Shown in pieces: positions 45,798-54,609 of a stretch of DNA of 64,000 nucleotides. Every line of letters starts with the position of its first letter. Within the stretch, counting starts at the first letter, position 1. The position numbers were made by a program, and so were the translations under genes. The notes beneath the pieces were generated by a model, which made no database searches, had not been told where the DNA came from, and saw nothing but the letters and a program-made list of their open reading frames with translations. The stretch comes from Bacteroidota bacterium. GTDB taxonomy: Bacteria > Bacteroidota > Bacteroidia > AKYH767-A > OLB10. Location of the stretch: the NCBI GenBank assembly GCA_016714005.1, contig JADJOA010000005.1, forward strand, positions 35,027 to 99,026, given 5' to 3'.

Positions 45798-48700
45798 TTA
45801 TTTAGCTGCCGGGCTTTGCTCCATTGGTGCATTTTGCTTTAACCATGCTTCGCGGTATTCAGAAGGAACATCGTTAACATTGGGATAAAGGAATTTATCG
45901 GTGTAAGCACCCGGTGCTTTCTTCAGGCGTAAGTCTTCGTAACCTTTGCGCTTGGCTACCATGCGGTAGTCAAAGGCAGTGCCGTTGGCAGCAGTGGGTG
46001 CATGTACGGTAAAGGTGTTGCCGTTGTACTCAATCCACCAGTTGCCCATGTTGCCATTGGGTGTAATAAATGCATGCATAGGGTGTGTGGCGTTTATGGT
46101 TACGGTTTGTTCATAATCGGGCGCTACGGTAACGGTTGCCACTCCGTTTTGTATAGTGCCTTTGCCAAAGTCTTCAAACCAGTTTTCTGGCGACTCCTGG
46201 CTGTAAAGCTCCTTAGGCCCATCAGGCGTTTTAACGGTGGCAGCCTTGGTGCCTGTGCAGGTAAAGTTACCTGCTGCGTAAACACCATAAGCACCTGTGC
46301 CGCTGGCAGTGCCATAAACCCCATAGTTGTTTGTTGTACCTCCGGTAGCATTACCCAAAACCCCATAACGGCTTCCGGTACCGGCAAGGGTAGCAGCGGC
46401 ATTAACACCAATATATCCACCTAAAGCCCCTACTCCATAACCATAAAAGGGTGTGTTGTTGGTTGAGCCAAAAACACCATAATAATCTGCGCTGGTTATT
46501 GTGTTAATACCATTTACAACTCTGTTAGTGTTGCCTGTTACATCTAATTTATTGGAAGGTGCTGTGGTTCCAATACCCACGTTACCATTTCCATGTACAC
46601 GCATTTTAGTATTAGCCACAGCATTGCCTGCAACCCTAAAATCAATATAAGCATTTGCTCCATATACATTGGCTAAATAAACTCCATTGTCTGAGGTAAT
46701 TTCGCCCAGTTTACCCATTTTATAGCTCTGGCTGCCAAAAGAAATGGCATCGCCATCTCCGGCTGCATCTGCGCGGCTTACATCCAATTTGGTATCCGGT
46801 GATGTTGTTCCAATACCCACATTACCATTTCCTTGAATACGCATTAATTCATTAGAAGTGGTTGCAGATGCAGAGGCATAAAAAATATGGTTCGCTCCAG
46901 TATGTTCTACCTGGTATCGGAGAGCACCACCGTTTATTCCGAATCCATAAAATTGATGTTCGTTATTAGCCGCTTCATACAGAACCACTTTACGGTTTGT
47001 ACTGCATTAGATAATTGAAGTTGTGCATTAGGTGTGGTTGTTCCAATACCACGTTTCCACCATTGTTAAATATATTGCTTGAGTTTACTATCCATGATGT
47101 GCCATTCCAATAAGGCGTGTTGCCTGCCTGCTGCTGCCAAAAGGTTGGGGCCGGCAGGGCCGATAGGTCCTTGTGGGCCTGTGGCTCCAGGTTGCTCCAG
47201 TTGGGCCAGCAGGACCTGTAGCTCCTGTTGGGCCAGTTGGGCGAGTAGGGCCTGTTGCTCCAGTTGCACCAGTAGGTCCTGTGGCACCGGCACCAATCGA
47301 ATGCCATCCAAGGGAAGGGCTATTCATTTTTGTAGTAAAAACTAAATCGTATGCAGATACATTAACATTGTTATAGTAAAAACTTCCACTGGCATAAGGA
47401 TTGGTTGTATAAAGCAGGAATCCAAACGAATTTCCAGTAATTACCTCAAACGTATATGTGGTACCTGCCGTCAAAGCAGGAGGGCTTGTAATAACAAATT
47501 CTTGAAATGAACCAGATGCGCCCGCAACTGCTATTGACTGCGTTGCTAAAATAGCCCCCCGGTACCTACACCACTACGAATGTTCAGAGTTCCAGTTCCA
47601 GCATCGCCATCTCTCTTTAAAGAAATAGAATATAATGTGCCCGTTATATTGGGTACAAAAGATTGCGCGTGGTTACCATTACCATAGGCTGTTCCTCCAG
47701 CAGCACCGCTACTAACATCATTACTTGGTGTGACTCCATTGCCGATAGCTGTTGTATATGCCTGCGTGGTATTGTTTGTGGTGTTGTGAATAACCATGCC
47801 GGGTGTGGCAATAAGCGCATCGCGCTGGGTTTGTGTCATGCGGGGTACTAACACGGCACCGGTGGTGCTGGTTACATCAAGTGCTGCGCTGGTGTTGGGG
47901 CGTGGTGCCTATGCCTATGCGTGTGCCGTTATTATATAAGTTGCTTGAGTTGGTTATCCATGATGTGCCATCCCAATAAGGCGTGTTGCCTGCTGCTGCT
48001 CCACTGGTTAATAAACCTGCAGGGCCTGTTGGGCCTGCAGGACCAGTTGCACCTGTGGGGCCTGCAGGACCAGTTGCACCTGTAGGGCCAGCCGGACCTT
48101 GGCCAACTAAGCCTGCTGTTGATTGCCAACTTGCCAAGCCTGCTGCATCCGACATTAAAACCTTGCCTGCACCCCTGTGTGCCATCAGTAATCTTTACAG
48201 TACCTATTACATCTAACTTAGCAGCAGGGGTAGTAGTACCTAAGCTAAGATTACCATTAAAATCTATTTGAGCCTTGGGAGTTGCAAAATTGGCACCTGT
48301 GTAAAACCTTAAATAGTCGCTTCCATAGGTACCTCCAACAATTGCCTGGCCGGGCGTACCTGGCCGCCCAAACGTAAGCGATACATCATTTGCAGCCGGA
48401 AACACTGCAGTAGTATTACTATTGGTTAATGATAAACCTGTGCGGCTCATAATAGCAGCACCTGAAACTGCATTCACTTCTGTTTCTAATTTAGCATCCG
48501 GGCTAAGAGTACCTATACCCACATTGCCACCATTGTTATGTATATTGCTTGAGTTTACTATCCAGGAAGTGCCATTCCAATAAGGCGTGTTGCCTGCTGC
48601 TGCACCCGGGTTTAAGCCCGATGCGCCTTGTATGCCTTGTATGCCTTGTGCACCCGTTGCACCTGTTGGGCCGGTTGCTCTGTTAAACCAATTGGACCCT

Positions 48701-49970
48701 GAGCACCTGTTGCCCCTGTGGGGCCAGTTGCACCTGTTGCACCTGTTGGGCCGGTAGCTCCGGTTGCACCCGTTGCACCTGTTGCACCGGGAGAACCTAC
48801 ACCTACTGAATACCAGCCAAGGGATGTACCGCCTGTCATTTTAGTTTTAAAATATAAATCAGAGGCAGATTGGATGGCTCCGTTAGCGTATGCATTGCCA
48901 CCGGCATAAGGATTAGCTGTAGAAACTCTGAATCCGAATGAACCTCCTGTAACAACCTCAAAAGTATAAACGTTGCCCGACACCAAAGCAGGAGCGGCTG
49001 TAATAATAAATTCTTGTTCGGTACCCGCAGCAGCAGAAACAGTTATTGACTGTGTAGCTATAATAGCGCCCCCTGTGCCGGCTCCGTTGCGAATGTTCAT
49101 GGTATTAGTGCCACTACCTCCATCAATCAATAAAGTAATAGAGTATAAACTGCCTGTTACCGTGGGAACAAAGGATTGCCCATAAGTTACACCACCCAAG
49201 GTTGAAGTCCCTACCGTTTGGGAAATATTAACCGTAGGTGTGCCGGTGGTGCCCATTGTATAAGCCTGCGTGGTATTGCTGGTGGTGTTGTGTATAACCA
49301 TGCCGGGTGTGGCAACAAGTGCATCGCGCTGGGTTTGTGTCATGCGGGGCAATAACACGGCACCGGTAGTAGATGTTACATCAAGTGCTGCGCTGGTGTT
49401 GGGGCTTGTGGTTCCTATGCCTATGCGGCTTCCGTTGTTAAACAAAGTATTGTCGGCCACCCATGCAGTGCCGTTCCAGCGCATGGTGTTGCCGTTGGCT
49501 GTGCCTGCGGGCAAATCAGAACTCTTGCCTGCAAACAAAGCATAAGGCACGCTGTTAAGCTGCGTAGTGCCCATGTCGGTATAGCTTGTGCCTCCGGCAG
49601 GGTCCATTTCTACTTGTATAAACTTGGCGCCATTGCCCCAGTTTACTGCGGCAAGGGTTCCTATGCCCGGTGTGCCTGTGCCTATGTTTATATTAAACAA
49701 GCCAAGGGCTGTTGTTGTAGGCGTATGTGTTTCCTGGTACACTATGGTGCCGCCTGCTGTTACATCGCGTAAGCTTATGCGCAGGCCTATGGCTTGTGTA
49801 GGCAGAATTTCGCCACTGGCATTACGCGCCACTCCCTGGTAAGGGATGGCATTGGGCGATTGGGCTATTGTGGCAAAAGCCATTAGCCATAAAGCAAAAA
49901 CCATAAAGGCTGTTGCCATTGTCTTAGTACTTGGTACTGATGTACGGGTACTGTTTAGTGTGTGTTGCAT
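45798..49970 (-). CDS. Large repetitive surface protein, paralog B: signal peptide, conserved N-domain, two '[12 protein letters not shown]' modules each followed by a collagen-like (GATGPT)n tract, tail-fibre-like NVGIGTTxPxxKLDV repeats, conserved C-terminal domain; fragmented by frameshifts
   Basis: 48612-49970(-) N-terminal 452 aa incl. '[31 protein letters not shown]'; 47546-47854 and 47088-47474 form a second copy of the module; 45798-46988 holds the tail-fibre-like repeats and C-terminal domain (…[36 protein letters not shown]…) almost identical to 41524-41862. Confidence 0.55.
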
Positions 49971-50020
49971 ATTTGTTTGATGTTTAGTTATGGTGTTATT
50001 TGTTGTTAGTGTTGCTTTTA

Positions 50021-50056
50021 CTTAATCACTTAATTACCTCAATCCCCCAATTACCT
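50021..50056. repeat. Same 17-nt repeat family upstream of paralog B, only ~1.7 copies
   Basis: cttaatc acttaattacctcaatc ccccaattacc, followed (50057-50160) by a leader that is near-identical to 45340-45420. Confidence 0.8.
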
Positions 50057-50160
50057 TTTCTTTTAACGCCACAAAGATGCCGTGCTAAACCGCGCCCGTC
50101 AATCGTTCATTCCAATGAATTGGTGTGGTGATGGGTGTGGTTTTGTAGTTGATATCAATG

Positions 50161-50520
50161 ATGTAAGGGCAGATTCCTCACTGCGTTCGGAGTGACAAAC
50201 CTATTTGCTCTTAGAGATTCCTCACTGCGTTCGGAATGACAGTTGGTTGGTTTTATAAAGACTGAAATGGGAAAAGGAAGGGCGCGCTTTGCGCGCCCTT
50301 CCTTTTCCCATTTCAGTCACACGCCAGCTCAGCCCCTGTCATTCCGAACCCGCTTTTCGCGGGTGAGGAATCTCTCATTTCACAAGCATCGCACTGTCAT
50401 TCCGAAACGTAGTGAAGAATCTTTTCTTCCATGCAGTACATTGCAGTGTCATTCCGAGTGAAACGAGGAATCTACTCTTTAGCTTCACCAACATTAACAG
50501 ATTCCTCACTGCGTTAGTAA
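50161..50520. repeat. Cluster of 26-nt palindromic repeat units (gattcctcactgcgttcggaatgaca and its reverse complement) around a 27-bp-stem perfect palindrome; MITE/REP-like
   Basis: Forward units at 50172-50197 and 50215-50240; perfect palindrome 50263-50319 (ctgaaatgggaaaaggaagggcgcgc-tttg-gcgcgcccttccttttcccatttcag); inverted units at 50337-50372, 50395-50422 and 50447-50472; partial forward unit 50501-50516. Each unit conserves an ATTCC...GGAAT stem with a variable loop. Confidence 0.7.
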
Positions 50521-50614
50521 TCTAGGTATTTACTTAATCAATTACTTTTGCTTTTACCAATCTTACTCAGTAAAAAATAGAGATGTATTTAACTTTAATT
50601 CAGTAACAACTTAA

Positions 50615-50935
50615 ATGTTAATACACAACTACTTTGTTTATGTCTTAACTAATGCGAGCCACAAGGTTTTATACACTGGTGTAACAAACGATTTGACAAG
50701 AAGAATCTTTGAACACAAGAAAAAATTGGTTAAGGGATTTACCTCTAAATACAACACCAATAAGCTCGTCTATTTTGAACGATTTGATTATATAGATTTA
50801 GCTATTCATCGCGAAAAACAAATTAAGGGCTATTCACGTGAAAAAAAGGAATCCCTAATTAACTCATTTAATCCTTCATGGATGGAATTATATGACAATG
50901 GTAAAAATAGTGCTTCCTACCTAGTTAACTTATAA
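50615..50935 (+). CDS. GIY-YIG nuclease family protein (small, YhbQ/UPF0213-like)
   Basis: 'YFVYVLTNASHKVLYTGVTNDLTRRIFEHKK' = GIY-YIG motif (Y-x10-Y, then R, E); 106 aa; embedded between two clusters of the 26-nt palindromic repeats. Confidence 0.65.
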   Translation: MLIHNYFVYVLTNASHKVLYTGVTNDLTRRIFEHKKKLVKGFTSKYNTNKLVYFERFDYIDLAIHREKQIKGYSREKKESLINSFNPSWMELYDNGKNSASYLVNL

Positions 50936-50964
50936 AGATGCTAAAGCAGCGGCAAAGGCATTCC

Positions 50965-51380
50965 GCACCACCTATAGAAGATGCCTCAGTACGTTCGGAA
51001 TGACAATCGTATTTGTTCTTGAAGGATTCCTCACTGCGTTCCCAATGACAAACGTATTTGCTCGTAGAGATTCCTCACTGCGTTCCCAATGACAAACGTA
51101 TTTGCTCGTAGAGATTCCTCACTGCGTTCGGAATGACAAGAGCAGCGCGTGTTGGTGAGAGAAAGGGAAAAGCAAAGGCGAGCTTTGCTCGCCTTTGCTT
51201 TTCCCTTTTCTCTCTTGATATCTTCAACCAACTGTCATTCCGAACGCAGTGAGGAATCTATGCTTTTCCCTTTTCTCTCTTGATATCATCAACCAACCGT
51301 CATTCCGAACGCAGTGAGGAATCTCGTTTTCCATATAGTACATTGCACTTTCATTCCGAATGCATTTAGGAATCTCCTTA
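50965..51380. repeat. Second cluster of the 26-nt palindromic units incl. a 44-nt tandem duplication and a ~150-bp MITE-like element with perfect 26-bp terminal inverted repeats
   Basis: Forward units 51025-51050, 51069-51094 (44-nt tandem repeat), 51113-51138; perfect palindrome 51160-51217 (gagagaaagggaaaagcaaaggcgagc-tttg-gctcgcctttgcttttccctttctctc); inverted units 51233-51258 (exact reverse complement of 51113-51138), 51299-51324, 51350-51375. The right half (~64 nt) is tandemly duplicated (51195-51258 / 51261-51324). Confidence 0.7.
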
Positions 51381-51461
51381 CTTTAGTCAACTTCAAAAAA
51401 CCGAAGCCTTGTCAGATCAATTAGCATATAACAGCAAATCTCTTTTCTTTGTATCACCGCT

Positions 51462-54400
51462 ATGAAGCACCTCTGCTGTTTCCTTTCCTTCCTCATCCTC
51501 TGCCTCAGTACACATGCACAGTACAGCCCCGACTCTGTGCGCATGAACTTTGACAAAATCACCGTTGAAGACGGACTCTCGCAGGGCATGGTGCAATGCA
51601 TCATACAGGACAAAGATGGCTACATGTGGTTTTCAAGCAAGGATGGGCTTAACCGGTACGATGGCTACCACATCACCGTGTTTCGCAACAATCCCGATGA
51701 CCCGCACTCCCTGCCCGATAACTATGTAACCTTTATGCAGCAAGATGATAAAGGCAACTTTTGGATAGGAACCAGTTCAAAAGGCGTTTGCCTGTATGAT
51801 AAACGCAGCGAAAGGTTTTTTCCCATAGCTGCCGTAACCAATGCCCTTCAAAAAACGAAGATATTTATGCACTTAAAGTAGATAATAACAAACTATTAAT
51901 TTCCACCAATAACAGTGCCCATGCCTTTGATGTAAGCCGGCTTAAAGAAGGTAACTTTACCAATGAAAACCTCAGCCGCATCAAACTCCTGTATAACTAT
52001 AATGCATCGCAACCCTTACCATCACGAAAGTATCAACTGGGGCATGGCATTACACAGTTATGGTTAAGTGATAGTTCTTTATGGACTTACTTTCTTGACT
52101 CTGTTTGTATAACCACCTTCAGCAGTTCTTTTACCACGCCTGCATATACTTGTTTACCCGCCACACAACTGGGCACAAACGGAACCGAACGATACAGCAT
52201 TGCGGAATTACCGGGCATAAACAAGGTTACTCTTTTATGCTTAGATAAGCTTATCTTGTATGATACCAAACTGCGTAAGGTTACTTATACTACCGCTATC
52301 ACCAAAAATAATATTGGACAAGGAAGTTGTTTTACCGATAAGCAAAACAGGTTTTATTTTGATACTACCACAGGCAATTATTGTTTTAACCCTGCCACGT
52401 TTGAACTAACTCCTGTTGTAAGTAACATGGGTTCTTTCATTATCGCACTTAATAGCTGCACCGACCGCAGCGGCACCTTGTGGGTTGGCAGCAGCGGGCA
52501 TGGTATTTTTAAATACAACGCCCGCAAGCAATACTTTCGTAACCCGGGCATAGGCAGTTGGTATTATGCACAGGGCAAAACGGGTGAAATACTCATGTTT
52601 GACCCTGATGTTTTCCTGAAACGATTAAACCCTGTTACAGGTAAGGTTATTGGCACTGTTCCTTTTCCTAACAAAAAACCCGATGGCACTCTTTGGAATG
52701 ATGGGAGAGTATTAATAAATGGTATGCAATGCGATAAAGACGGAATAATTTGGATGGAATGCAATGACAAACCAATTTCTGAATATTTGCTTTGGTACAA
52801 TACGGCAAACAAGGCAATAGGCATAAAACAAATAGCTACAGCAGGCAGAGAACAGTATCGTAAATTGTTTATTGATAACAACAACCGCCTTTGGCTTGTT
52901 AAACACAATGCCAACCACAGCCGTAGTTGGATTGAGTTTGATAAAACCACCAAAGAACCTGTAAGAGAATACAAATTCCCAATTGAAAAGATTTAAACAC
53001 ATACCCCTTTGTATCTGATATGTGGCAGGATGCACAAGGTGTGTTTTGGTTTGGCACCATACAGGGCTTGTTTAGTTTTAATGAAAAGAAGAATGAATGG
53101 CATCAATGGAAAAACATTCCAAACAACAATGCTTCCCTTAGCGGGGATATGATATTCTCCCTTTGCCCCGATGCCAAACAACCCGATAAATATTTATGGG
53201 TAGGTACAAACGGTACTGGACTTAACCGTTTTGAGTACGCCACCGGCAAATGCATACGCTACACCGAAGCAGATGGACTGCCCAATAACGTTGTGTACTC
53301 CATGCTTAATGACAATGCAGGCAACTTATGGCTAAGCACTAATAACGGATTAAGTTGCATGCTCTCCGGCAAAGACTTCCGCAACTTTACTACCGATGAT
53401 GGCTTACCCGGCAATGAGTTTAACCGGTTCGAAAAGCTCAAACTAAGTTCGGACGAATTATTGTTTGGGGGTGTGGCAGGCGGCACTATCTTTAATCCTG
53501 CCGAAATACTAAAACAAAACCCTGCACCTAATTTGGTGCTTACCGGGCTATCTATCTACAACAAACCTGCAACCCACACCACCGATAGCACCATTATTCA
53601 AGCACCCATTGGGTATGCAAACACCATCACCCTTCCGCACAACAAAAACATGTTCACGCTGGAGTTTGCAGCATTAGAGTCATCACCTGCCAACAAAAAA
53701 CAATATGCTTACCGGTTATTGGGCTTTGACAACAACTGGATACCCAATGGTGCAAAGAATGCCGCCACCTATACCAACCTGCCTCACGGCAGCTACACCT
53801 TTCAGGTAAAAGGCGCAGGCAGCGATGGTGTTTGGAACGAGCAAGGCGCATCCATCAACATTATCATTCTTCCGGCCTGGTATCAAACGTGGTGGTTTAA
53901 GTTGGCAGTGTTGCTTGCTGTGGCAGGAGGTTTGTATGCACTTTACCGCTACCGCCTCAGGCAGCAACTCAAACTCCTCACCGTGCGCAACCGCATAGCA
54001 GCCGACTTGCACGATGAAATTGGCAGCACCCTCAGCAGCATTGCCCTGTCAAGTACTGTTATCCAAAACAAATTGAATGGCAGCGCCCCCGAAGTAAACA
54101 CACTGCTCAACCAAATTAGCACCAACACCAATAACATGATGGAAGCCATGAGCGACATTGTGTGGACCATCAACACCAAAAACGACAGGTTTGATAACGT
54201 CATCAACCGCATGCGCGCCTTTGCCATCGAGATATTAGAACCTAAGGATTGCCTCGTTCACTTTAATGCTTCCGAACAGCTAAACAACCTTACCCTTGAC
54301 ATGGCGCAGCGCAAGAACCTTTACTTGTTGTTTAAAGAAACCATTAACAATGCTGCCAAGTATTCGCATTGTCAAAACGTGTGGATTGACATTACCATGA

Positions 54401-54609
54401 ACGGAAGCAACAAGCTTATGCTAAAGATTAAAGACGATGGCGTTGGGTTTGCCACACATGCCACTGTAGGTAGCAATGGTAAAAGCGAAGCCTTTGGTGG
54501 CAACGGCTTAGCCAGCATGCGCAAACGCGCCCACGAGTTGGAAGGAACAGTAACCATCAATTCAGAAATAAACAAAGGAACTGAAGTGGTATTAGAGTTT
54601 AAGATTTAA
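51462..54609 (+). CDS. Hybrid-architecture sensor histidine kinase: signal peptide, two-component-regulator beta-propeller repeats, Y_Y_Y domain, TM helix, HisKA_3 + HATPase; broken into >=4 ORFs by frameshifts
   Basis: Propeller repeats ('YMWFSSKDGLNRYDGYHITVF', 'FWIGTSSKGVCLYD', 'LWVGTNGTGLNRFEY', 'LWLSTNNGLSC'); Y_Y_Y-like 'KKQYAYRLLGFDNNWIPNGAKNAATYTNLPHGSYTFQVKG'; TM 'WWFKLAVLLAVAGGLYALY'; H-box 'RIAADLHDEIGSTLSSIAL'; G-boxes 'DDGVGF', 'GNGLASMRKRAHELEG'. Confidence 0.7.

Follow-up and report, generated by a model that had tools for sequence, protein, structure and literature searches.

Short inverted repeats crowd both sides of a small nuclease gene in a 64,000-nucleotide (nt) stretch of a Bacteroidota genome (the whole stretch is called the window here), and the question that this locus raises is whether the repeats and the gene belong to one system and, if so, of which kind. 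Between positions 50171 and 51375 of the window, a unit of 26-28 nt occurs in 13 complete copies and one truncated copy, in both orientations, around a gene encoding a GIY-YIG protein of 106 amino acids (aa). We consider it probable (about 0.8) that the locus is an Ssn/SRM system: judged by sequence comparison, the GIY-YIG protein appears to lie in or very near the Ssn family of nucleases, and the units are its predicted cognate hairpin sites, of the kind termed Ssn-related motifs (SRMs). The pairing of ssn genes with hairpins was first described in 2025, in Neisseria (Chenal et al., Nat Commun 2025; PMC11893778). The system is known in kind, and is neither a new class of element nor a MITE (miniature inverted-repeat transposable element).

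In the Neisseria work, the repeat known as NTS (CGTCATTCCCGCGMAVGCGGGAATCYRG), which contains dRS3, flanks ssnA, a gene for a 94-aa GIY-YIG protein, in many bacteria. Binding of the NTS by SsnA is confined to single-stranded DNA (ssDNA) and to one of the strands, and the cut falls a few nucleotides 5' of the repeat; SsnA does not act on RNA or double-stranded DNA (dsDNA). For binding, the C after the stem carries the most weight, and for cutting, the three bases before the stem. SsnA lowers transformation by NTS-bearing DNA. The Ssn family, CDD cd10448 (GIY-YIG_unchar_3), numbers thousands of proteins, and SRMs flank the majority (71% of the homologues had a nearby SRM); the biochemistry was assayed on SsnA and three homologues, and the homology criterion was E < 1e-10 with 75% coverage (PMC11893778).

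The nuclease and its link to the repeat units

The gene at the centre of the island is the following:

50615-50935, plus strand: ssn-type gene for a single-domain GIY-YIG nuclease of 106 aa (Pfam PF01541)

The product matched PF01541 over residues 5-78 (E = 3.7e-14), its sole Pfam match, in agreement with the small GIY-YIG gene that the first-pass annotation had placed at 50615-50935. Six residues of catalytic type, Y9, Y20, R30, H34, E67, and N86, were invariant in 20 homologues, and the spacing Y9-11-Y20-47-E67 is that of Y6, Y17, and E64 in SsnA, an equivalence drawn from spacing and not from an alignment. In related strains, the protein has 105 aa (P0001), and the window copy differs from it in the last residues: a 1-nt insertion in an A-run at 50903 and a 2-nt insertion 21 nt further on, at 50924, give the tail GKNSASYLVNL instead of GKIVLPTHNL and restore the frame and the stop. 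These indels are confined to the non-conserved C-terminal tail and leave the conserved domain intact. Because of the frameshifted tail, an exact-sequence look-up of the window protein had no match, and P0001 was found instead. Homologues were numerous, with at least 7,998 of 8,000 scored candidates at E <= 1e-5 and the best 120 at 65-100% identity to the query.

The same annotation had called the gene YhbQ-like. The UPF0213/YhbQ proteins are alike in fold family and size, but their sequences are only weakly similar to the window protein: the two structures of that family (PDB 1ZG2 and 1YWL) scored E = 8e-5 at best and 0.11, compared with E = 1e-23 to 2e-30 for Ssn-type proteins flanked by NTS, a difference that speaks against the YhbQ assignment. 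We know of no association of UPF0213/YhbQ genes with repeats. An NCBIfam scan returned a group I intron endonuclease model at E = 7e-4, below the cut-off.

The repeat unit has the form (T/C)GTC-ATTCC-GA-[variable stem-loop]-GA-GGAAT-C. Copies are called S if the plus strand has AGATTCCTC..GGAATGACA (full plus-strand form, AGATTCCTCACTGCGTTCGGAATGACA) and A if it has the reverse complement, TGTCATTCCGA..GAGGAATCT. The unit has its tag, outer stem, and 3' C in common with the NTS (CGTCATTCCCGCG..GCGGGAATC). The homology of the proteins was assessed through the NTS itself, by scanning viral contigs for its exact canonical form (GTCATTCCCGCGMAVGCGGGAATC). In the 120 stretches obtained, a homologue profile of the window protein detected five GIY-YIG genes, each beside NTS copies (E = 2e-29 to 9e-22). 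Two of these NTS-flanked proteins (in L412 and L445) were 39% and 44% identical to P0001 over 87-90 of its 105 residues (E = 1e-23 and 2e-30), and the gene in L412 lies between NTS copies that point outwards, as the A and S units do here. One contig of the viral collection that derives from an isolate genome (L345, 89-1186) carried 13 exact canonical NTS copies, at least eight of them within 1.2 kb, which shows that NTS-type arrays also get collected as "viral" contigs.

The link between gene and units was measured in 80 metagenomic loci containing homologues with 57-100% identity (up to 4 kb per side; 329 kb with 267 units). Up to 300 nt from the gene, units numbered 2-4 per kb, and beyond 1 kb, 0.05-0.25 per kb, a 10-40-fold enrichment across 80 independent loci. 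A unit lay within 500 nt on at least one side in 70 of the 80 loci, and on both sides in 28. Going outwards from the gene, the unit met first was an A unit upstream in 38 of 48 loci and an S unit downstream in 37 of 50, and the commonest map was S..A - gene - S..A, that is, [unit-palindrome-unit] gene [unit-palindrome-unit]. The first-pass annotation had suspected a link with the nuclease and had allowed that it might be coincidental; these counts bear out the suspicion and contradict the reservation, and the nuclease link is the organising principle of the island. Furthermore, the S unit begins at the end of the conserved protein in many homologues and often provides the TGA stop, and many C-termini (P0008, P0019, P0021, P0032, P0039, P0091, P0117, and others) are a translated S unit (DSSLRSE*, EIPHSASLHSE*, IPHFVRND, GLGMTG). 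Such hairpin-derived tails, together with stand-alone mini open reading frames (ORFs) encoded by hairpins, are likely annotation artefacts in protein databases.

Units of the window type (GA-type, (T/C)GTCATTCC-GA-[stem-loop]-GA-GGAATC) and of the NTS type almost never occurred on one contig. No GA-type unit was found in any of the 120 NTS stretches, with their 200 NTS-type matches, and 1-7 NTS-type units were found among 90-193 GA-type matches elsewhere. Each gene was flanked only by its own type of hairpin. Judged from these sequences, the separation fits co-evolved pairs of enzyme and site, as anticipated by Chenal et al. (PMC11893778), with the GA type as a putative separate class. An identity matrix for specificity-linked clades was suggestive only.

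Several points weigh against assigning the locus to the Ssn/SRM system. The membership of the protein in the Ssn family rests on its homology to proteins flanked by canonical NTS and not on a direct comparison with SsnA or cd10448. The published SRM consensus, HGTCWYN(0-2)YYVSBRHN(0-5)WNVSBRGN(0-2)RNCYNB, had no match in the window and a literal match within 500 nt in one of the 80 homologue loci; as a regular expression it accepts the NTS, and it fails on the GA-type unit because the G·A positions break the match. In Neisseria, a change of the stem sequence that kept the structure abolished activity (PMC11893778), and the specificity here would accordingly have to differ. Within the window, units occur only beside the gene and do not by themselves show a genome-wide set of targets in this organism. 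When loci were selected by hairpin, a nearby ssn homologue was present in four of 120 genomic loci and in none of 120 viral ones, a result that is expected for dispersed sites and proves nothing; that so few of these loci carry a homologue means that most units are dispersed, away from the gene. Natural competence of this organism is not established, and the role described in Neisseria is therefore not simply transferable.

The repeat island and its hairpins

The units and palindromes of the island are arranged as follows:

50171-50198 and 50215-50242, minus strand: two S units, 44 nt apart (the recognition-type strand, YGTC-ATTCC..GGAAT-C, is the minus strand)
50260-50287 / 50291-50318, no strand: left core palindrome, perfect 28 bp with a 3-nt loop, centre of the head-to-head dimer 50215-50374
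50337-50374, 50395-50421, and 50447-50472, plus strand: three A units (the recognition-type strand is the plus strand)
50499-50521, minus strand: truncated S unit (64% copy), AGATTCCTCACTGCGTT followed by unrelated sequence, 94 nt before the start codon
50979-51006, 51024-51051, 51068-51095, and 51112-51139, minus strand: four S units in a 44-45-nt tandem array, detected by a repeat finder
51157-51213, no strand: right core palindrome, centre of the head-to-head dimer 51112-51259, terminator-like on the plus strand
51193-51257 / 51258-51322: tandem duplication with a period of 65 nt, copies 95% identical
51233-51259, 51298-51324, and 51349-51375, plus strand: three A units, the first two inside the 65-nt tandem duplication

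The 26-mer with up to three mismatches matched the window eight times and 100 shuffles not once, and further, diverged copies were recovered with a looser pattern; neither search found a copy elsewhere in the 64-kb window. Upstream of the gene lie five complete units and the truncated one, and downstream, seven. The two intergenic regions beside the ORF share one layout, in which tandem S units are followed by a long palindrome and then by A units. The unit at 50337-50374 has an extended apical stem of 6 bp, 50447-50472 is the complete unit closest to the gene on the upstream side, and the downstream S array begins 44 nt past the stop codon. The copies counted by the first-pass annotation, at least 12 of a 26-nt unit flanking the gene in both orientations, are thus present in a number far beyond chance. 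Its 44-nt tandem duplication appeared as a period in the output of the repeat finder, and its 64-nt duplication exists with a period of 65 nt. A CRISPR-like array was ruled out by the 18-nt "spacers" of the 44-nt array, which are identical to each other, and integron attC sites by their unlike conserved core. Rfam contained no family for the unit, and searches with the region and a single unit gave sub-threshold microRNA and small RNA look-alikes on the long palindromes. A literature search with the unit sequence as a string returned nothing relevant.

In each unit, the 5-bp ATTCC/GGAAT stem leads into a tandem internal loop, G·A / A·G (read from the complementary strand, T·C / C·T), topped by an apical hairpin of variable sequence. 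Folded as DNA, the stem of a short unit reached -1.7 kcal/mol (z ~0), no better than shuffles, and the long-loop copy (50336-50379) reached -10.1 kcal/mol (z -3.8). As folding of the short unit was uninformative, covariation was used as support for the hairpin. A scan of viral contigs with GTCATTCCGA-N(5-20)-GAGGAATC yielded at least 120 stretches, in which the variable middle forms a little stem-loop of its own, with matched changes on its two sides (GCGAAGC, ACGAAGT, GTGAAAC, ACCCCGGAGGGGT, and others). In 40 distinct variants with a 7-nt loop, the first apical pair was GC 21 times, AU 10 times, and CG four times, with 16 double-sided changes; none of 500 shuffles reached the observed covariation score, and slid controls collapsed. 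The ATTCC/GGAAT stem with a variable loop described at first is upheld as a hairpin by this covariation of the apical stem across many loci, and the stem alone is not a signal of stability.

The nucleotides next to the stem are also strongly conserved. Over 361 distinct units, position -3 was T in 285 and C in 61, position -2 was G in 358, and position -1 was T in 359, followed by C; the C immediately after the stem (+1) was present in 353 of the 361 and in all window units with an intact stem. The tags in the window are TGTC, with one CGTC. Among the matches listed for species-representative genomes, the exact window 26-mer occurred in many phyla, including Chloroflexota, Acidobacteriota, Armatimonadota, Planctomycetota, Nitrospirota, Patescibacteria, and others, as well as Bacteroidota (Tannerella forsythia ATCC 43037, Pedobacter including sp. 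ASV17, Alistipes, and Prolixibacteraceae), Pseudomonadota (Luteimonas, Nitrosomonas, and Methylophilus), and Bacillota (Ruminococcus). In these same matches, it was often present on several contigs of a genome, with at least 12 stretches in one Ruminococcus metagenome-assembled genome (MAG) and five in one Chloroflexota MAG.

The units take further forms on other contigs. On a viral contig with a GC content of 0.63 (L037, 5777-11868), six units lie on one strand, five of them 0-10 nt past the stops of consecutive same-strand ORFs, the stop codon overlapping the conserved GAG ahead of ATTCC; this placement suggests a preference for the 3' ends of genes. The placement of units relative to stop codons was uninformative with mechanically called ORFs in high-GC contigs, and is read from two contigs checked by hand. 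Long, regular arrays, far larger than the window island, were seen at two places on one Dehalococcoidia chromosome (L204, 2198-3497; L218, 4336-5140), in L306 (3499-4769), and upstream of the gene in L313, in the form of alternating S/A pairs every ~190-270 nt or of five A units at a 52-nt period.

With respect to known repeats, the likeness to the NTS/SRM system of SsnA extends from the ~100-aa single-domain GIY-YIG protein, homologous at 39-44% identity, and the bracketing of its gene by oriented hairpins to the YGTC tag, the ATTCC../..GGAAT outer stem, the C right after it, and the clustering beside surface-protein genes. The unit here differs in its G·A / A·G internal loop, in a variable, covarying apical stem-loop of 4-40 nt, and in failing the SRM consensus, and the host is a Bacteroidia bacterium. 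A second relative is formed by the repetitive extragenic palindromic sequences (REPs) tagged with CGTC, of which Di Nocera et al. (2013; PMC3733652) described four families (CGTC-1 to CGTC-4) in five phyla including Bacteroidetes, and which include dRS3 of Neisseria and RPE-4/6 of Rickettsia. Those repeats have an unpaired CGTC (often TGTC) tag, AT-starting stems of 8-9 bp, and loops of 4-5 nt, occur mostly as head-to-head dimers, and "apparently lack a dedicated transposase" (PMC3733652). The island shares with them the tag, the AT-starting stem, head-to-head dimers with spacers of 20-100 bp that are sometimes structured, the presence in Bacteroidetes, and peptide relics (VIPAKAGI / DSRFRGND there, VIPNAVRN / DSSLRSE here); the CGTC-1 peptides VIPAKAGI and DSRFRGND back-translate to GTCATTCCCGCGAAGGCGGGAATC, a close relative of the unit. 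However, the described families have fully paired stems and a CCA tail, whereas positions 6-7 are mismatched here (G·A / A·G), the loops span 3-40 nt, and the tail is CT(C); and whereas no dedicated enzyme was found for them, the units here are tied to an ssn gene. On these sequence features, the unit is related to the four described CGTC families and is placed outside them. The statement of the first-pass annotation that such families are poorly catalogued in Bacteroidota does not hold for this unit, given the close resemblance of the unit to CGTC-tagged REPs (PMC3733652) and NTS/SRM hairpins (PMC11893778).

The island also resembles REPs and REPINs (REP doublets forming hairpins) with their RAYTs (REP-associated tyrosine transposases, similar to those of IS200/IS605), in that short tagged hairpins form inverted dimers, which could fold up as a single long hairpin and show compensatory changes, and in that the gene encodes an ssDNA nuclease that binds hairpins and has its own repeats on either side. 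The enzyme here is a GIY-YIG hydrolase and not an HUH (Y1) tyrosine transposase, and the tag is YGTC and not GTAG. The Neisseria intergenic mosaic elements, blocks of 50-150 bp that are bounded by inverted ATTCC..GGAAT hairpins and located near surface-protein genes, are likewise similar to the island. Their internal blocks are different, whereas the centre here is a perfect palindrome of 19-28 bp and variable sequence.

Composite elements and alternative explanations

The composite elements, each composed of a unit, a core, and an inverted unit, correspond to 50215-50374 and 51112-51259. In the second, the terminal inverted repeats (51112-51138 / 51233-51259) are 27 nt long and 100% complementary. 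Its core contains a perfect stem of 22 bp (51162-51183 / 51187-51208), or one of 27-28 bp with one bulged A, and related strains have one more A at 51162, with which the stem is perfect over 28 bp. Between the left core and the right, three stem positions differ, and each change is mirrored in the opposite arm. Both elements were found, with one layout and different cores, as the first-pass annotation had reported; for the element of about 150 bp that it placed at 51113-51258, the perfect inverted repeats stood (given as 26 bp), and the perfect 27-bp stem did not. The same arrangement recurred among 80 distinct S-then-A pairs, which had a median spacer of 93 nt and inward-facing tags, and are head-to-head dimers in this sense. 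In a recurrent class of these pairs, the spacer of 81-101 nt is centred on a perfect palindrome of 19-28 bp with a loop of ~3 nt, 17-24 nt from each unit. The sequence of the core varies widely among loci, and its palindromy stays perfect. One Prolixibacteraceae contig carries two such dimers 0.57 Mb apart (L234, 930-1066; L238, 5085-5219), with different cores that are each a perfect palindrome of 20-21 bp, which shows that the dimer module is dispersed and its perfect palindromy maintained outside ssn loci. Cores that are perfect yet specific to each copy point to selection, or to some process, that acts on intrastrand pairing, as in REPINs; the cause may be fold-back synthesis, correction of quasi-palindromes, or selection.

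Could these composites be transposons? On the MITE reading, each unit-core-unit element of ~150 bp would be a transposon that is non-autonomous, ends in 26-bp terminal inverted repeats, and is moved by a conventional transposase in trans, and the GIY-YIG gene would be a bystander. Their size, non-coding foldable sequence, perfect 27-nt terminal inverted repeats, and single layout in both window elements are those of MITEs, and the module occurs at unlinked sites elsewhere (L234 and L238, on one Prolixibacteraceae contig). However, at 56 dimers, the longest flanking direct repeat was no longer than in control flanks, and neither window element has a target-site duplication. There is no transposase in the island and no parent insertion sequence (IS), and no recurrent transposase-like cluster was present among the 1,652 ORFs that lay up to 300 nt from units in 240 loci; in an all-against-all clustering of the ORFs near hairpins in these loci, the recurrent clusters were phage structural proteins only, owing to the viral collection. 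Moreover, the "terminal repeats" are autonomous hairpin units that also occur singly, in tandem arrays, or in the opposite arrangement around the gene, and the association with GIY-YIG genes is very strong. The MITE-like nature proposed by the first-pass annotation is not supported, given the dimers without target-site duplications and the lack of a transposase, and we regard it as very improbable. The chances are similarly slim that the units serve the flanking genes simply as transcription terminators or as hairpins that regulate at the RNA level, and that no protein is dedicated to them. On the plus strand, the right core resembles a terminator, 230 nt past the ssn stop, and may also terminate ssn transcription; units on other contigs lie 0-10 nt past the stops of consecutive co-directional ORFs, and REPs in general are mostly located downstream of genes. 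A terminator, however, has no need of 19 flanking and stem nucleotides that are nearly invariant across phyla, and the short unit is unstable by nearest-neighbour rules and has no T-tail. Both orientations are present in a divergent promoter region, no Rfam family matched, and SsnA has no RNA binding (PMC11893778).

Two further explanations give the nuclease an active part. In a free-standing homing-endonuclease cassette, the GIY-YIG enzyme would break dsDNA at empty hairpin sites and be copied in by repair. The truncated S unit 94 nt upstream (50499-50521), the many homologue genes that end exactly at the start of an S unit, and the weak, sub-cut-off match to a group I intron endonuclease (E = 7e-4) would be in keeping with such a cassette, but the protein lacks the DNA-binding extension typical of homing GIY-YIG enzymes, the characterised family member leaves dsDNA uncut, and most genes are flanked by complete units and not by split halves; this origin is highly unlikely. 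A selfish, IS-like or REPIN-like system, in which the Ssn nuclease, as a GIY-YIG counterpart of RAYT, would mobilise and spread the dimers and itself, with any effect on incoming DNA secondary, has a better, though still clearly minor, share of the probability; it concerns the role of the locus and not its identity, and overlaps with its assignment to the Ssn/SRM system. The gene is bracketed by outward-facing units, as RAYT genes are by REPs; the head-to-head dimers have compensated perfect cores that differ by copy, as in REPINs; homologues are numerous (at least 7,998 at E <= 1e-5), with the best 120 highly conserved; the exact 26-mer in many phyla, among the matches listed, suggests horizontal spread; and the number of units varies by strain. 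Against this, GIY-YIG enzymes are nucleases that act by hydrolysis and are not known to carry out strand transfer, the differences among strains are tandem gains and losses for which slippage suffices, no new insertion site was seen in the strains compared, and the phenotype demonstrated in Neisseria is transformation.

Neighbourhood, predicted mechanism, and significance

The locus was ~96-98% identical in ten other assemblies, including two MAGs of a "Bacteroidia bacterium" and wastewater and digester metagenomes. These differ in the number of S units downstream (three, four, or six) and upstream (one or two) and of A units downstream (three or four); the arrays thus change by the gain and loss of units, and local tandem gain and loss between strains is shown. 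Adjoining the island, the ORF at 48612-49970 (minus strand) matched a collagen-like repeat, and in a related strain (L001, 3903-9358), a 1006-aa protein and a 792-aa PKD_6 / Por_Secre_tail protein are encoded beside the island. The position next to surface-protein genes echoes the clustering of NTS near such genes in Neisseria. On the other side, a sensor histidine kinase (Reg_prop / Y_Y_Y / HisKA_3 / HATPase_c) is distributed over three ORFs at 51462-54609 and is a single gene encoding 1022-1049 aa in related strains. Single-base deletions in A-runs at 51850 and 52986 split it, and reflect either genuine pseudogenisation or assembly error in homopolymers. Short direct repeats (TTTACTTAATCA..AATTAC.TTTT..TTTAC) flank the left hairpin cluster at 50006-50066 and 50529-50557 and occur again at 51435-51450, just before the start of the kinase; they could be the remnant of a duplication from insertion or expansion of the cluster, or a common leader sequence.

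If the locus is an Ssn/SRM system, the strand YGTC-ATTCC-GA-[stem-loop]-GA-GGAAT-C would fold into a hairpin in ssDNA, whether in incoming transforming or conjugative DNA, in the lagging-strand template, or in extruded cruciforms, and by analogy with SsnA of N. meningitidis, the protein would bind this hairpin in a sequence-specific manner. The positions critical in Neisseria, the C after the stem and the GTC tag before it, are both nearly invariant here. As with SsnA, the nuclease would be expected to cut on the strand that it binds, a few nucleotides to the 5' side of the tag, with dsDNA, RNA, and the complementary strand not serving as substrates. Because the units around the gene point outwards (A upstream, S downstream), the predicted cuts would bracket the A-gene-S block on opposite strands, an IS-like NTS-ssn-NTS layout. 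In the head-to-head dimers, the cuts are predicted to fall between each unit and the palindromic core, the tags facing inwards as in REP dimers and REPINs. One possibility, from the analogy with Neisseria, is that the system would limit or shape the recombination of incoming ssDNA at loci marked by SRMs; another, from the analogy with REPs and RAYTs, is that the nuclease would propagate the hairpins.

What was an odd repeat island beside a hypothetical nuclease becomes an annotated system that predicts the strand bound and the position of the cut. The new element, modest but concrete, is a variant hairpin class with its Ssn subfamily in a Bacteroidia genome, a hairpin that occurs in many phyla and is missed by the published motif. 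The Ssn/SRM pairing appears to reach a Bacteroidia genome and, via the GA-type hairpin, contigs of Chloroflexota, Bacillota, Acidobacteriota, Patescibacteria, Planctomycetota, and others, and such sites are under-counted by the published SRM consensus. The units also account for some of the spurious small ORFs and unusual C-terminal tails (..DSSLRSE*, ..EIPHSASLHSE*) that appear in protein sets from metagenomes, and as Ssn enzymes are under development as site-specific ssDNA cutters, the GA-type hairpin is a candidate new orthogonal specificity. More tentatively, and with the odds rather against it, the GA-type hairpin and its Ssn subfamily may constitute a distinct and very widespread specificity class that the SRM definition misses, the ~150-nt dimers being REPIN-like replicating units spread via the Ssn nuclease. 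If this is true, Ssn would be a second, independently recruited nuclease family, GIY-YIG and not HUH, driving REP-type repeats across many phyla.

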